64,000 nucleotides of DNA from Candidatus Latescibacterota bacterium (GCA_965208835.1 OZ242358.1:1-64000); one strand, 5' to 3'; shown: positions 32,270 through 57,660, numbered from the stretch's first letter. Notes: generated by a model not told the origin, from the letters alone. Translations and numbers: made by a program.

Positions 32270-32457
32270 GAAGCCGTTTTAAAATTCCCAGCGGTCTTCG
32301 CGCGGCTGCAAAAGCGCCGGTCAGCGTTGGTCAAACCCACCCAAGAGTGGCGAGGGGCGCGCAGCCACGATACATTGGATATGGGCGGGTTTTCCCGCCT
32401 TGACCGCCACTTTTTCGCTCGCGCTCGGGAATTCACCGGTAATTTTAAAACGGCTTC
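32270..32457 (+). mobile_element. MITE family B copy
   Basis: TIRs gaagccgttttaaaatt / aattttaaaacggcttc; flanks taa/cta. Confidence 0.88.
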
Positions 32458-32508
32458 CTAAGAGAACGGCAGATACTGGACGTCGTATACAACCCGGGGA
32501 GGGATGGA

Positions 32509-33258
32509 ATGACCATTGTCGACGGCCACGTCCACGTGGGTCTGACCAAGTACGTCGCTGTTGAAGTGCTTCTGGCGCAGATGGAATCGGCCGGAATCGA
32601 CAAGGCCCTGCTGGTACAGTACGGCGGATGTCACGATAACGCCTATTTGAAAGACTGTATGGACCGCTATCCGGGCCGGTTCGCGTCTCTGGGCGCGGTG
32701 GACTACGACGCCGCAGACGCGGGCGACCGGATTCGGCGCGAAGTGGCCGAATTCAGTCTGGCGGGACTGCGGATTCCGGCCTCTGTCGATAACGAGACGG
32801 TCTGGGACACTGTTGGCGAACTGGGTATCATGGCCAGCCTGAGCGGAGGCATGGCAGGCATGCTTCGCCCCATTATGGAAGAACGTATCCGGCGGCATCC
32901 GCGCGCGATGTTTCGCATCGAACATATGGGTTGGTTCCCCGACGTGGAGAAGACCCCGGATGAGCCGGACTATGAGCGCCTGATGGGTTACGCGAAGTAC
33001 GAAAACACCGTCTTCATGCTTTCAGGATTCTATGGATTCGGAAAGGGGTTTCCCTACGAGGAGGCAACGCCCTTCATCGAACGGGCGCTGGAGCGGTTCG
33101 GCGCCGAGCGGATGCTGTGGGGGAGCGATTTCCCGCCCGTGAGTCTTCATGAAACCTGCGAGATGGCCGTAGACATGCCCCGCCGCTGGACGTTCCTTTC
33201 CGACAGCGAACTTGAATGGATCATGGGCCGGACCGCTCTGAGGCTTTTCAGTTTCTAG
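32509..33258 (+). CDS. amidohydrolase family (Amidohydro_2) protein
   Basis: VDGHVH, IEHMG, RMLWGSDFP. Confidence 0.9.
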   Translation: MTIVDGHVHVGLTKYVAVEVLLAQMESAGIDKALLVQYGGCHDNAYLKDCMDRYPGRFASLGAVDYDAADAGDRIRREVAEFSLAGLRIPASVDNETVWDTVGELGIMASLSGGMAGMLRPIMEERIRRHPRAMFRIEHMGWFPDVEKTPDEPDYERLMGYAKYENTVFMLSGFYGFGKGFPYEEATPFIERALERFGAERMLWGSDFPPVSLHETCEMAVDMPRRWTFLSDSELEWIMGRTALRLFSF

Positions 33259-33313
33259 AAAGCGCGCCGCTGGCGCGAGTGGTGAGGTTCGATAGACATT
33301 GAAAGGAGTCTTG

Positions 33314-35044
33314 ATGCGGTATAGCAGCCTTTTTACGCAGACGCTTCGTGAGGCGCCGGCCGACGCGGAGCTGGTCAGCCATCAACTTGCGCTTCGGGCG
33401 GGGCTGATCCGGCCGCTGGCCGCGGGCATCTTCAGCGCGCTGCCGTTGGGACTCCGGGTCGCACGGAAGATCGAGGCGATATTCCGGGAGGAGATGGCGG
33501 CAATTGACTGCGTGGAACTGCTGATGCCCATCGTGCAGCCGGCTGAGCTCTGGCAGGAAAGCGGGAGATGGAACGAGGTGGGTCCGGAAATGCTCCGGAT
33601 GCAGGATCGATCCGAGCGGAACATGTGCCTTGCAATGACCCACGAAGAGGCGGTCACGGATCTGGCGAGGCATCTGATCAGGAGCTATCGTCAGGTGCCT
33701 ATGAGCGTGTTTCAGATTCAGACGAAATTCCGCGACGAGCCCCGGAGCCGGGGCGGTCTGATACGCGTGCGGGAATTTACGATGAAAGACGCGTACAGCT
33801 TCGACCTGGATGAAGCCGGCCTGGAATCGGTCTATCAGGATATGTACCGGGCCTATGAGAATATCTTCCGTCGGGCCGGCCTGGCGGATCAGGTGGTTTC
33901 GGTGGAGAGCGACACCGGCATGATGGGTGGAACCGGGGCGCACGAATTCATGTATCTGAATCCCGCGGGCGAGGATACATTGCTGATCTGCGACGGATGC
34001 GGTTACCGTGCGAACCGGCAGATTGCCGTGTATGAAAGGGAGGAGGCGGTCGGTGAGACACCGGAACCGCTCCGGGAAGTGGCCACGCCGGGATGCACCA
34101 CCATTGAAGATCTGGCGCAGTTCCTGGACATTCCCGCAAGCCGAACGGCCAAAGCGGTGTTTATGACAGGTTCCGTGCAGGGAGAAGAACGGTTTATCTT
34201 CGCGCTTGTTAGGGGAGACCACGAACTCAGCGAAACGAAGTTGTCCAACGCGGTCGGGGCCGTCGATATGCGGCCGGCGACAGAGGATGAAATCCGTGCG
34301 ATCGGGGCCGAGCCCGGATACGGATCTCCCATCGGCATCGCGGAGGATGCGTTGATCGTTGTGGATGACCTGGTGGCGAAGTCCGGTAACCTGGTATCCG
34401 GGGCGAACAGGGTGGACCATCACTGCCTGAACGTAAACGTGGGCAGGGACTTCGAAGCGGACCTGGTCGCCGACCTGGTGGCGGTGGAGGCGGGGATGCC
34501 ATGCGCTTTATGCTGCGCCTCGCTGCGGTCGGCGCGCGGGGTGGAGGTGGGGAATATATTCAAGCTGGGCACCAGATACAGCGAGAAACTGGGCGCGAAC
34601 TTCCTGGATGAGAACGGCAAAGCCCGTCCGCTGGTGATGGGTTCCTACGGGATCGGCGTCGGGCGCCTGCTGGCCTGCGTAATCGAGGAACACCACGACG
34701 ATCAGGGCATCGTCTGGCCGATTTCGGTCGCGCCGTTCCACGTGCATATCGTGGTGCTTTCCGGAAATCGGCCGCGGGGAGAGCTGGAGGCGGCACAGCG
34801 GATCTGCCGGGACCTGGAAGCCAAGGGGATCGAAGTGCTGCTGGATGACCGCGACGAGCGGGCGGGCGTAAAGTTCAACGATGCGGACCTGATCGGAATC
34901 CCCATCCGGATTACCGTGGGTTCCAGGGGGCTGGCGAAGGGGGAGGTGGAAGTGAAAATGAGAAAAGAGCGGGACAGGAAAGACATCGCGATCGACGCGC
35001 TGGTAGGGTACGTGAAAGAAATCGTCCAACAAGGGCAGGCATGA
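33314..35044 (+). CDS. proS: proline--tRNA ligase with INS editing domain
   Basis: MTHEE, FRDEPRSRGGLIRVREFTMKD, EVGNIFKLG, MGSYGIG, GVKFNDADLIG. Confidence 0.97.
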   Translation: MRYSSLFTQTLREAPADAELVSHQLALRAGLIRPLAAGIFSALPLGLRVARKIEAIFREEMAAIDCVELLMPIVQPAELWQESGRWNEVGPEMLRMQDRSERNMCLAMTHEEAVTDLARHLIRSYRQVPMSVFQIQTKFRDEPRSRGGLIRVREFTMKDAYSFDLDEAGLESVYQDMYRAYENIFRRAGLADQVVSVESDTGMMGGTGAHEFMYLNPAGEDTLLICDGCGYRANRQIAVYEREEAVGETPEPLREVATPGCTTIEDLAQFLDIPASRTAKAVFMTGSVQGEERFIFALVRGDHELSETKLSNAVGAVDMRPATEDEIRAIGAEPGYGSPIGIAEDALIVVDDLVAKSGNLVSGANRVDHHCLNVNVGRDFEADLVADLVAVEAGMPCALCCASLRSARGVEVGNIFKLGTRYSEKLGANFLDENGKARPLVMGSYGIGVGRLLACVIEEHHDDQGIVWPISVAPFHVHIVVLSGNRPRGELEAAQRICRDLEAKGIEVLLDDRDERAGVKFNDADLIGIPIRITVGSRGLAKGEVEVKMRKERDRKDIAIDALVGYVKEIVQQGQA

Positions 35045-35271
35045 ACACTGTTTATATCAAGTTCAAAAGTCGCAGACATCAGGTTAATGGCTATTACGAA
35101 CTGGCGACCCATGCCACGGTGACAAGCTTACCGGATGGTGTGTACATCGTGCCCGTTCAAGCATTGTCGATTCTGGATGAACAGGATATTTCGTATCGAC
35201 AGGCCGCGGAAGACGAGGTGGAGAAGTCTCATGCGCAGCCTATCCCCCGGTGGGATAACAACCCACGATAG
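35041..35271 (+). CDS. small hypothetical protein (76 aa)
   Basis: ATGA overlap with the proS stop; no recognised family. Confidence 0.6.
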   Translation: MNTVYIKFKSRRHQVNGYYELATHATVTSLPDGVYIVPVQALSILDEQDISYRQAAEDEVEKSHAQPIPRWDNNPR

Positions 35272-55993: not shown

Positions 55994-56067
55994 TGGGCTG
56001 CGCCAGGGCTGAAAACTGGGACATATCGCACTGCGGCAATCGCGTAACGAAGTCTTCGGTACCTTAA

Positions 56068-56227
56068 CAGCCCGTTGAAAAAGCCCATCCGGGCTACGGC
56101 CGGCCATTGCGGTCGAAATACTGCGTTGCGCGCCCTCGCCGAATCGCTAGATGGGACTCGGTTGCGCGCCTTGTCTTCGACCACAATGGCTCGGCCTCGC
56201 CTGCAGAGCGACTTGATCAACGGACTG
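56068..56227 (-). mobile_element. MITE family A, copy 6
   Basis: cagcccgttgaaaaag...tcaacggactg; flanks ttaa/ttat. Confidence 0.9.
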
Positions 56228-56258
56228 TTATAAACCGAAGACTCGTTTGTTCCGGTTG

Positions 56259-57449
56259 ATGGATCCGGGTTCCTGTTGGCGGAGGTGCGAAATCGGAAAC
56301 ACAGGCTTCCGGTTTGAGGTGCTGGCCACAGACCAGAGCGCACGAGCAGGGGTACTTCATACGCCGCACGGGGTTGTGGAGACCCCGGTTTTTATGCCTG
56401 TTGGCACTTGCGGCACCGTTAAGACGCTGGGGCAGCAGGATCTGAGAGATCTGGACGCGAGGATCATCCTGGGCAACGCCTATCATCTGTATCTGAGGCC
56501 CGGGGCGGATTTGATCTCCGAAGCGGGCGGCCTCCACGGCTTCATGAACTGGGACCGGGCGATCCTCACCGATAGCGGTGGCTATCAGATCAGCAGCCTG
56601 GCGGGCCTGAACAGGATTACGGACGAAGGCGTACTTTTCCAGTCCCATATCGACGGGTCGCGACATCTGTTTACGCCGGAGCGGGTGATCGAGATCGAAC
56701 GGGCGATCGGCGCCGACGTTATCATGATGTTCGATGAGTGTACGGCCTATCCCTGTGATTATGACTATGCGAGGGTAGCGGGTGAGCGCAGCCTGCGCTG
56801 GGGCGCCCGGTGCATGGATGCGTTTTCAGCATCGGGGGGTCTGAGTGCAGCCGGACGCGAACAGGCGTTGTTCGGCATTGTTCAGGGAAGTACCTATTCC
56901 GATCTGAGAGAACGGTTTACGGATGAGACGGTGGCGATGGGTTTCTGGGGGTTCGCCATCGGAGGCACCGGAATGGGCGAACCGGGCGCGGACACGTGGA
57001 ACGCCGTTGAGTCCGTCGTGCAGCGTCTTCCGGAGGCGTCGCCCCGTTACCTGATGGGGCACGGAACCCCGAAGGACCTCGTTCAGGGTGTCAGCCGCGG
57101 CATCGACCTGTTCGACTGTGTGTTGCCTACCCGGAACGCCAGGAACGGTACCGCGTTTACCCGATGGGGCAGGATGAACCTGCGCAACGCGAAGTTCGCG
57201 CGCGACCTGGCGCCACTCGACGCGGAATGCGCGTGTTACACGTGCAGAAACTATTCGCGGGCCTACCTCCGTCATCTGGTTCGTTCGAAGGAGATTCTGG
57301 GCCTGCGGCTGTTGACCCTGCACAGCCTCCACTTCTATCTGTCGTCAATGCGTGAGATGCGAACCGCCATTCTGGACGGGCGGTTCACCTCGTGGAAAGA
57401 GAAGTTCCTGAACACGGCCAAGAGTCAGCAATTCGAGAACAGTCAGTGA
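56259..57449 (+). CDS. tgt: tRNA-guanine transglycosylase (start uncertain: ATG 56259 or ATC 56292)
   Basis: [52 protein letters not shown]. Confidence 0.96.
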
Positions 57450-57474
57450 AGTGATTCTATCGTTCAGTTTATAA

Positions 57475-57660
57475 GAAGCTGTGTTAAAATTACCGGTGAG
57501 TTCCCGAGCGCGAGCGAAAAAGTGGCGGTCAAGGCGGGAAAACTCGCCTATGAGAGGCGAGCAGGCGCAGCCTCGATCTCGTAAGACGGGTGGGTTTGAC
57601 CAACGCCGACCGGCGCTTTTGCAGCCGCGCGAAGACCGCTGGGAATTTTAAGACGGCTTC
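57475..57660 (-). mobile_element. MITE family B copy between tgt and yajC
   Basis: gaagctgtgttaaaatt...aattttaagacggcttc; TAA duplication on both sides. Confidence 0.9.

Follow-up and report, generated by a model that had tools for sequence, protein, structure and literature searches.

Can the centre of a small mobile element be replaced while the element itself stays where it is in the chromosome, or does the centre of each copy simply mark the lineage from which that copy descends? The question is raised by a 64,000-nucleotide stretch of DNA from Candidatus Latescibacterota bacterium (GCA_965208835.1 OZ242358.1:1-64000; the window), which makes up the first 64 kb of one contig of 5.18 Mb (59.5% GC; the genome is labelled G000 here). 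A sequence-only reading of the window had described four full copies of a MITE (a miniature transposable element with inverted repeats), family B (MITE-B), as a constant scaffold with an exchangeable central loop, and had proposed that the loop could be a subfamily marker or, more speculatively, a guide- or cargo-like sequence. The four copies lie where that reading placed them, and the strings it quoted for three loops are exact. The copies were compared with one another, with the other copies in G000, and with copies at the same sites in related genomes.

Alignment of 118 full copies from G000 resolves MITE-B into a scaffold, consisting of a left arm, a 13-nt middle segment, and a right arm, and two slots. 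The first slot, at the apex (site 1), comes after ...CCRCCC and has three allele classes: S (14 nt, GTATAGACAAATAT); M (40 nt, the hairpin GAGGC/TGCGCTTGCTC/GCCTC with flanks), of which M2 is a variant found in one scaffold lineage (beta, below); and I (40 nt, in which an S-like part accompanies a hairpin whose loop is TGCGCGCCCCTC), which occurs in both orientations, I+ and I-. The second slot (site 2), which the sequence-only reading missed, comes after TTTYCCCG and is filled either by CCTTG or by a 24-bp module, single or as a tandem pair (GGCRC/TRCGCGCCCCTC/GYGCC plus TC). Writing the centre state as site-1 class followed by number of site-2 modules, the 118 copies comprise 51 S,0, 29 M,0, 17 M,1, 5 M,2, 10 I-,0, 3 I-,1, 2 I+,0, and one partial, and a site-2 module never accompanies an S loop (0/51). 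The 55 distinct site-1 strings in these copies collapse to three classes. Full-length copies, of which there are about 120, range from 162 to 234 bp in length classes that step by 24 bp (about 162, 186-188, 210-212, and 234 bp).

The four window copies sample this variation. Copy 1 (32270-32457, plus strand, 188 bp) is in state I-,0, and its apex slot (32343-32382, plus strand) carries the I- allele, in which a 14-nt S-like loop comes after a hairpin module of 26 nt (stem GTGGC and GCCAC around a loop of 12 nt); an identical 42-nt string is present in 4 further G000 copies. Copy 2 (47431-47640, plus strand, 210 bp) is in state M,1; its apex slot (47504-47543, plus strand) carries the 40-nt M allele with the hairpin GAGGC/TGCGCCTGCTC/GCCTC, and its site 2 (47557-47585, plus strand) carries 29 bp, made up of one 24-bp GC-rich hairpin module (GGCGC/TGCGCGCCCCTC/GCGCC) and its junctions, where copies 1, 3, and 4 carry CCTTG. 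Copy 3 (54272-54433, plus strand, 162 bp) is in state S,0, with the 14-nt S allele at 54345-54358 (plus strand). Copy 4 (57475-57660, minus strand, 186 bp) is in state M,0, and its apex slot (57548-57587, minus strand) contains the same M allele as copy 2, the loop on the given strand being the exact reverse complement of the copy 2 loop.

The critical comparison is between copies at the same chromosomal site in different genomes. We mapped 86 distinct MITE-B copies of the sister genome G009, with their flanks, to G000: the site is shared in 13 cases, empty in G000 in 25, without a flank match in 28, rearranged in 12, and occupied by other DNA between the flanks in 8. At the 13 shared sites the centre state differs in 9 and is the same in 4. 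The differences are these: M,1 or M,2 vs. M,0; S vs. M,0; S vs. I-; S vs. M,2; and I- vs. M,0. Ranked by arm sequence, the positional orthologue comes first among 116 G000 copies in 8 of the 13 cases, and in 5 of these 8 the centre nevertheless differs; alignments show that orthologous pairs have insertion point, orientation, and private arm variants all in common. Summed over the 13 pairs, substitutions amount to 3.1% in the arms (52 in 1664 nt, with 3 gap events) and to 12.5% in the centres (73 in 585 nt, with 22 gap events).

Each of the four window copies has a positional orthologue with another centre in a sister genome. Copy 1, I-,0 in G000, is S,0 in G006, with flanks 98.3% identical and the same private arm variants, and the site is empty in G009, G011, and 11 other genomes of the genus. 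Copy 2, M,1 in G000, is S,0 in G011 and an 84-bp centre-less form in G009, G006, and G002. Copy 3, S,0 in G000, is S,0 in G002 and M,0 in G004; the site is empty in G009, G006, and G007, G011 has no copy either, and the empty site is bridged by a contig of sequencing run X5. Copy 4, M,0 in G000, is M,1 (the 210-bp form) with near-identical arms in G009; the site is empty in G011, G007, G005, and G002, and there is a 46-bp gap in G004. At the locus at 4136498 a single scaffold is found in three states, of which G000 has M,2, G011 has M,0, and G009 has S,0, and at 315478, where the flanks are 99% identical, I- in G000 corresponds to S in G009. Site 2 changes too: the module number differs between orthologues as 0 vs. 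1 (copy 4 and locus 68572) and as 0 vs. 2 (loci 1421218 and 4136498). The alleles at the changed loci occur as identical strings in 3 to 18 other copies. We conclude that, at fixed chromosomal loci, the slots acquire new contents and the arms are kept, and that the change is templated, the incoming sequence being, letter for letter, an allele of other copies.

The alleles are related by replacement. Alignments of orthologues show that S, M, and I do not derive from one another by simple insertion, and the two site-2 alleles differ by a 24- or 48-bp indel together with 2-3 adjacent substitutions (CCTTGA vs. TC[module]TCATAA or TCTTAA). The same two site-2 alleles recur in three clean orthologous pairs (L150, L162, and L163), in each of which the same linked substitutions go with the indel; we therefore rejected a simple-deletion origin for them.

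Could the differences between genomes be errors of assembly, the centre of a 100-copy repeat having been mis-threaded or mis-polished in metagenome assemblies? All of the genomes compared are assemblies from uncultured organisms, three of them (G006, G011, and G004) are in 40-100 contigs, and contigs built from short words break in every MITE copy. However, the principal comparison, G000 vs. G009, is between two single-contig genomes; G002, also a single contig, agrees at copies 2 and 3; the differences are clean replacements of one 24- to 72-bp allele by another, with no chimeric mixtures; and the pattern of linkage within G000, described next, requires no second assembly. We therefore regard an assembly artefact as improbable.

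If the centres were inherited with the scaffold, centre class should follow scaffold type within one genome. Markers in the left arm, the middle segment, and the right arm define two lineages, alpha and beta, in which the scaffold passes on as a unit, with almost complete association between left-arm and right-arm markers (L1 by R1, two-by-two counts 64, 1, 3, and 21; p=3e-16) and between the middle segment and R1 (74, 3, 2, and 20; p=9e-16). In contrast, centre class shows no linkage to any scaffold marker (p 0.28-0.98), and neither does site-2 state (p 0.13 and 0.76). When a tree is made from arm sequence alone, the number of changes on it is 49 for centre class, vs. 48.9 +/- 3.0 with shuffled labels, and 25 for site-2 state, vs. 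23.8 +/- 1.5; the nearest arm relative has the same centre class for 47.3 of 118 copies, vs. 45.8 expected. The proportions of S, M, and I are nearly the same in the two lineages (35:29:9 in alpha and 11:10:3 in beta). Lineage is visible at a finer level, that of sub-alleles: S loops read GTATAGAC... in alpha and GTATACCC... in beta, M2 is found in beta with the exception of a single degenerate copy in alpha, and the alpha-type M loop is present in 6 of the 11 M copies of beta. We conclude that exchange usually stays inside one scaffold lineage and occasionally crosses from one to the other, which is what homology-dependent choice of donor predicts.

These results bear directly on the proposal that the centre variants are pure subfamily markers, each spread by a separate master-copy lineage, in which case differences at shared sites would reflect independent insertions into the same TNA target. 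The lineage-specific S sub-alleles and M2 are as this proposal expects, whole elements have moved since the genomes split (25 of the 86 G009 copies lie at sites that are empty in G000), and for 3 of the 9 changed pairs the closest match by arms is another copy. The proposal does not account for the absence of linkage between centre class and arms, nor for the 5 changed pairs in which the positional orthologue, nearest of 116 by arms, has the same insertion point, orientation, and private variants. The orthologue data thus largely refute it, and we consider it unlikely. The suggestion that the loop marks subfamilies accordingly survives at the level of sub-alleles and fails at the level of centre class, and the description of MITE-B as a constant scaffold with an exchangeable centre is borne out both by orthologues that keep their arms and differ in their centres and by scaffold markers unlinked to centre class.

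What, then, replaces the centre? The S form is predicted to fold as one long snap-back DNA hairpin: for copy 3 the folding free energy is -42.9 kcal/mol (z -6.57; 0 of 200 shuffles as good), whereas z is -4.45 for an I copy and -1.36 for copy 2 (M,1). The sequence-only reading had called for a covariation analysis, and the 51 S copies support the hairpin: 92.0% of cells in 62 pairs are paired, vs. 36-50% when the partners are slid, and changes on both sides of a pair account for 47 cells at 14 pairs, vs. 18.5 +/- 2.9 (maximum 26) in 300 shuffles, in a count that uses the minimum-free-energy structure of a single one of the 51 copies and copies that are related to one another. Consensus folding of the DNA alignment (RNA.alifold) returned local stems only.

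According to the explanation that we favour, and think probable, the centre is swapped by copy-to-copy recombination, either ectopic gene conversion or template switching, at the apex of the hairpin, with slippage in addition. The apex of the snap-back hairpin, a type of site known to be fragile, would stall replication or be cleaved by an SbcCD-type nuclease, and homologous repair, or a template switch, onto another MITE-B copy would then replace the centre and leave the arms; donors would mostly be of the same scaffold lineage. Replication slippage across the hairpins would add or remove tandem modules and would yield the 84-bp centre-less forms. The junction of the 84-bp form is at a TCGG direct repeat, and deletion between short direct repeats at the base of the hairpin matches these forms. 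The loops would then have arisen as by-products of an unstable palindrome, or would have at most a structural role as hairpins, and would be neither guides nor cargo. In Escherichia coli, cleavage of palindrome hairpins by SbcCD and repair of the resulting break by recombination are reported in PMC4245961 and PMC3315005; the template in that case is the sister chromosome, whereas the model for MITE-B needs an ectopic copy. G000 has two overlapping genes (G000:C1:2143345-2147753; L323 846-5254) that encode a 422-aa Metallophos protein and a 1047-aa AAA_27/AAA_23/SMC_N ATPase, and this pair is, from its domains, a candidate Mre11/Rad50-type hairpin nuclease operon.

Several observations weigh against this explanation. 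G000 has no match to the SbcC model TIGR00618, and its match to the SbcD model TIGR00619, at 55 bits, is under the cut-off of 77.65. No conversion event was seen directly, and no donor copy was found. The divergence of the arms shows no gradient towards the centre, in a comparison of low power. Co-conversion is absent even for scaffold markers that lie 1-5 nt from a slot, a boundary sharper than gene conversion with random endpoints would give, except where almost all donors belong to the same lineage. The near-equal proportions of S, M, and I in alpha and beta also fit intrinsic switching. The arms evolve about three times more slowly than the surrounding DNA (3.1% divergence vs. 8.6% for the 400-bp flanks of the shared sites, whose mean identity is 91.4%), which fits poorly. 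In 3 of the 9 changed pairs (L212, L232, and L240) the arms are not especially close (ranks 17, 49, and 58), and these pairs could represent whole-element replacement or separate insertions. Finally, the multi-contig genomes G006, G011, and G004 could be mis-threaded at a 100-copy repeat, and contigs of sequencing runs break inside every MITE-B copy and bridge empty sites only.

Some of the same observations are what would be expected if switching were functional, either selected or programmed, with the apex hairpins serving as a protein site, a terminator or RNA-stability element, or a guide, and being swapped by a dedicated activity with fixed boundaries. The sharp slot boundaries, with markers 1-5 nt away remaining with the scaffold, the equal class proportions in the two lineages, and the slow divergence of orthologous arms relative to flanks all agree with this, as do compensatory pairs between module stems (GAGGC/GCCTC, GTGGC/GCCAC, GGCGC/GCGCC, and GGCAC/GTGCC). 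On the other side, the loops reduce to few alleles; the module cores are confined to MITE-B loci in G000 (32 of 32 and 44 of 44 exact matches, and, with one mismatch allowed, 49 of 54 and 56 of 56 matches); the M and I loop cores have no match in IMG/VR; and a search of window positions 32000-58000 against Rfam (E<=1) found nothing on MITE-B, the sole match being one chance viral motif. G000 has no Y1/RAYT or IS200-type gene and no IS5- or Harbinger-type transposase, and no recombinase candidate turned up, though no systematic search for one was made. Relative to adjacent genes there is no bias of orientation or position on a crude frame-based gene call, which places copies between tandem genes in 35 cases, convergent genes in 9, and divergent genes in 9, with orientations at 20:15. 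We hold functional switching to be unlikely. We give equally little weight to a specific form of it, in which the apex slots would be true cassette sites and a hairpin-directed activity would cut at fixed positions and swap structured modules between copies. If this were true, each of some 120 intergenic loci would switch back and forth between the plain S hairpin and a hairpin bearing one to three additional GC-rich stem-loops, which would affect termination, RNA stability, or protein binding at adjacent genes, and MITE-B would be a domesticated orphan MITE that serves as a slow, genome-wide system resembling phase variation.

The proposal that the loops are guide- or cargo-like is not supported. 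With three classes only, cores confined to MITE-B, and no IMG/VR match for the M and I cores, we rejected loops as guides. The sequence-only reading had stated that its proposal would be contradicted by loops that reduce to a few alleles related by simple deletions, match nothing else, and are not expressed; the loops do reduce to a few alleles, and their cores match nothing else in G000 nor, for M and I, in IMG/VR, but the alleles are not related by simple deletions alone, so that on its own terms the proposal is refuted only in part. We also rejected the possibility that the 24-bp module is an independently dispersed REP-like family, as its cores occur only inside MITE-B and G000 has no RAYT gene.

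Insertion of whole elements, as distinct from exchange of their centres, raises the question of which transposase moves MITE-B. A perfect 3-bp duplication flanks 54 of the 120 copies (among 123) whose termini can be placed, and every one is TNA (TAA 21, TTA 19, TGA 7, and TCA 7). In the window, the perfect duplications that had been read at copy 3 (TTA) and copy 4 (TAA) are present; copy 1 is flanked by CTAA on both sides, or by TAA plus one extra C; and the flanks of copy 2, CTA/CTT, are an imperfect duplication. The sister-genus genome G015 contains two insertion sequences (ISs), of 956 bp (L124 1450-2405) and 929 bp (L126 860-1788), that have ends like those of MITE-B, starting with GAAGCYGTTTTAAAA and ending with TTTTAAAACRGCTTC, and that are flanked by TTA and TAA duplications. 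Each has one open reading frame (ORF), of 271 or 280 aa; the 271-aa ORF matches NF033580 (transpos_IS5_3) at 243 bits (cut-off 110), with domains DUF4096, DDE_Tnp_1, and DDE_Tnp_1_2, and the transposase is about 45% identical to its closest annotated relatives, which are named "IS5 family transposase." The same termini, the TNA duplications, and the IS5-family transposase of the G015 ISs uphold the assignment of MITE-B to IS5. The earlier assignment to the IS1031 subgroup can be set against the IS1031-type pattern of the ISfinder scheme (about 850-950 bp, one ORF, a 3-bp duplication, and GAG/GAA ends): the G015 ISs would fit this pattern, at 929 and 956 bp, with a single ORF, a 3-bp TNA duplication, and GAAGC ends, and NCBIfam and PLSDB label this type of transposase "IS5 family" only.

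MITE-B and the G015 ISs have only their terminal 15-17 bp in common; the interiors are unrelated. The G015 transposase protein has no match in the 15 genomes of the window's genus, and profile searches of G000 returned no match to PF01609, PF13586, or PF13359 (DDE_Tnp_1, DDE_Tnp_1_2, and DDE_Tnp_4) and none to PF01797, the profile for Y1/RAYT transposases. Two pairs of MITE-B ends in G000 (873805/875178 and 2297317/2298528) were considered as possible ends of an autonomous partner and rejected, because they enclose ordinary genes and no IS. MITE-B is a non-autonomous foldback element of the IS5 family, and it is an orphan in this genus, with about 120 full copies and no cognate transposase found. 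This leaves a puzzle, in that MITE-B is insertion-polymorphic between near-identical strains, yet a transposase was not found.

With the four window copies as blastn queries, MITE-B occupies 145 loci in the 5.18-Mb G000, 123 of them at least 140 bp long, vastly more than could arise by chance, and internal-deletion forms recur there at 84, 70, 55, and 43 bp; the window itself has, in addition to the four copies, a 25-bp left-end remnant (7433-7457, plus strand). MITE-B is present in 14 of 14 sister genomes of the genus and in sister-genus G015, which bears the intact ISs and has just two full-length MITE-B copies and fragments. A second sister-genus genome, G033, has at least 34 copies of 163-165 bp, none of M length among the matches listed, and many G033 contigs begin or stop 77 bp away from one. 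When species-representative genomes were scanned for an exact pattern, there were matches in metagenome-assembled genomes titled Candidatus Latescibacterota, Gemmatimonadota, and "uncultured bacterium," and in one contig (L042) filed under Gammaproteobacteria.

Further observations concern individual loci and their surroundings. The locus at 4136498, at which three centre states were found, has in G004 (L306) no more of the MITE than ~22 bp from the start of its left end, and in G002 and G005 a 36-bp right-end-like remnant lies a few bases away; this site underwent repeated insertion and deletion. Around copy 3 (window 53300-55400), G009 is 96% identical to G000 on the left of the copy and 80% on the right, and G011 is 93-95% identical on both sides, a mosaic that suggests homologous recombination between species. 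Copy 4 lies between a stop codon at 57449 and the start of the next ORF at 57691. Elsewhere in G000 (873000-875200 of contig C1; L001), an enolase-superfamily-like gene is tandemly duplicated as near-identical ORFs (L001 9-806 and 906-2093), beside which MITE-B right-end fragments in the same orientation are found at 873805 and 875178.

A second MITE-like family, family A, with ends CAGTCCGTTGAT..., often adjoins MITE-B in the window (32166-32268, which abuts copy 1, and 47216-47383, 1299-1640, 6302-6481, and 55832-56230). Its copy at about 56063-56231 is missing from contigs of runs X5 and X7, and is therefore insertion-polymorphic too; it contains TGCGCGCCCTCGCC, a sequence that a single base distinguishes from the MITE-B module loop TGCGCGCCCCTCGCC. 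Directly downstream of copy 2, at 47741-48235, is an AATCCTG-rich tandem-repeat array with units of ~77-83 bp, and the interval between conserved anchors around it measures 1079 bp in G000, 673 bp in G009, 613 bp in G006, and 460 bp in G011. At 52123-52322, 200 bp of the window are replaced by 5 letters (TCGTT) in contigs of X5 and X6, and near there, in contigs of X7, a 245-bp stretch is replaced by 50 letters; the segment is probably another small mobile element.

How does MITE-B compare with repeat families in which variable interiors have been described? Judged by architecture, its nearest analogue is BOX of Streptococcus pneumoniae. BOX has the structure boxA-boxB(n)-boxC, and its inserts at orthologous positions vary in length between strains, as set out by Croucher et al. 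2011 (PMC3049150). Both families have constant ends, a variable tandem number of a short internal module, and a predicted stem-loop within which that module folds on its own; site 2 of MITE-B, with its 0-2 tandem 24-bp modules, corresponds to this. However, BOX has one unit that changes in copy number, whereas MITE-B adds an apex slot in which the unrelated alleles S, M, and I replace each other; host phylum and cognate IS family differ as well, and the likeness is one of architecture, with no relation in sequence expected. Other IS5-family MITEs resemble MITE-B in having TIRs (terminal inverted repeats) in common with IS5-family ISs and a 3-bp TNA duplication, and in being small and numerous; for MITE-B, by contrast, only the terminal 15-17 bp are common to element and IS, and none of the 15 genomes searched in the genus has the cognate transposase. 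The eukaryotic counterparts of IS5-family MITEs are the Tourist elements of PIF/Harbinger. PIF/Harbinger elements make a 3-bp duplication, according to PMC2213677.

REP elements, for their part, reportedly were proposed by Higgins et al. in 1988 to evolve by gene conversion. REPINs are like MITE-B in being hairpin-forming repeats with conserved ends, a variable centre, and compensatory changes; PMC3116915 describes conserved hairpin ends, a less conserved central spacer, and compensatory changes across the hairpin. Unlike REPINs, MITE-B resides in a genome with no Y1/RAYT gene, has the TIRs and TNA duplications typical of a DDE transposase, and has a module that is not independently dispersed. 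In the GC42 family of yeast mitochondria, diversity is greater in the loops than in the stems, for which PMC4478555 offers non-allelic recombination as one explanation. In the open-access literature we found no description of MITE-B and no in-place replacement of apex alleles in a bacterial MITE. What is new here is a second kind of slot, at which unrelated alleles replace one another at fixed loci, as established by orthologues and by linkage.

The results have consequences for how such families are read. MITE "subfamilies" based on internal indels are unsafe as phylogenetic markers. MITE-B provides an unusually clean natural record of recombination between dispersed repeats, in which the scaffold remains in place and keeps its private mutations while a centre of 14 to 90 bp is drawn anew from a small set of alleles over the time that species take to diverge. 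Should the apex-break model be true, the ~120 copies would be built-in reporters of hairpin-triggered ectopic repair in an uncultured marine lineage associated with sponges or corals.

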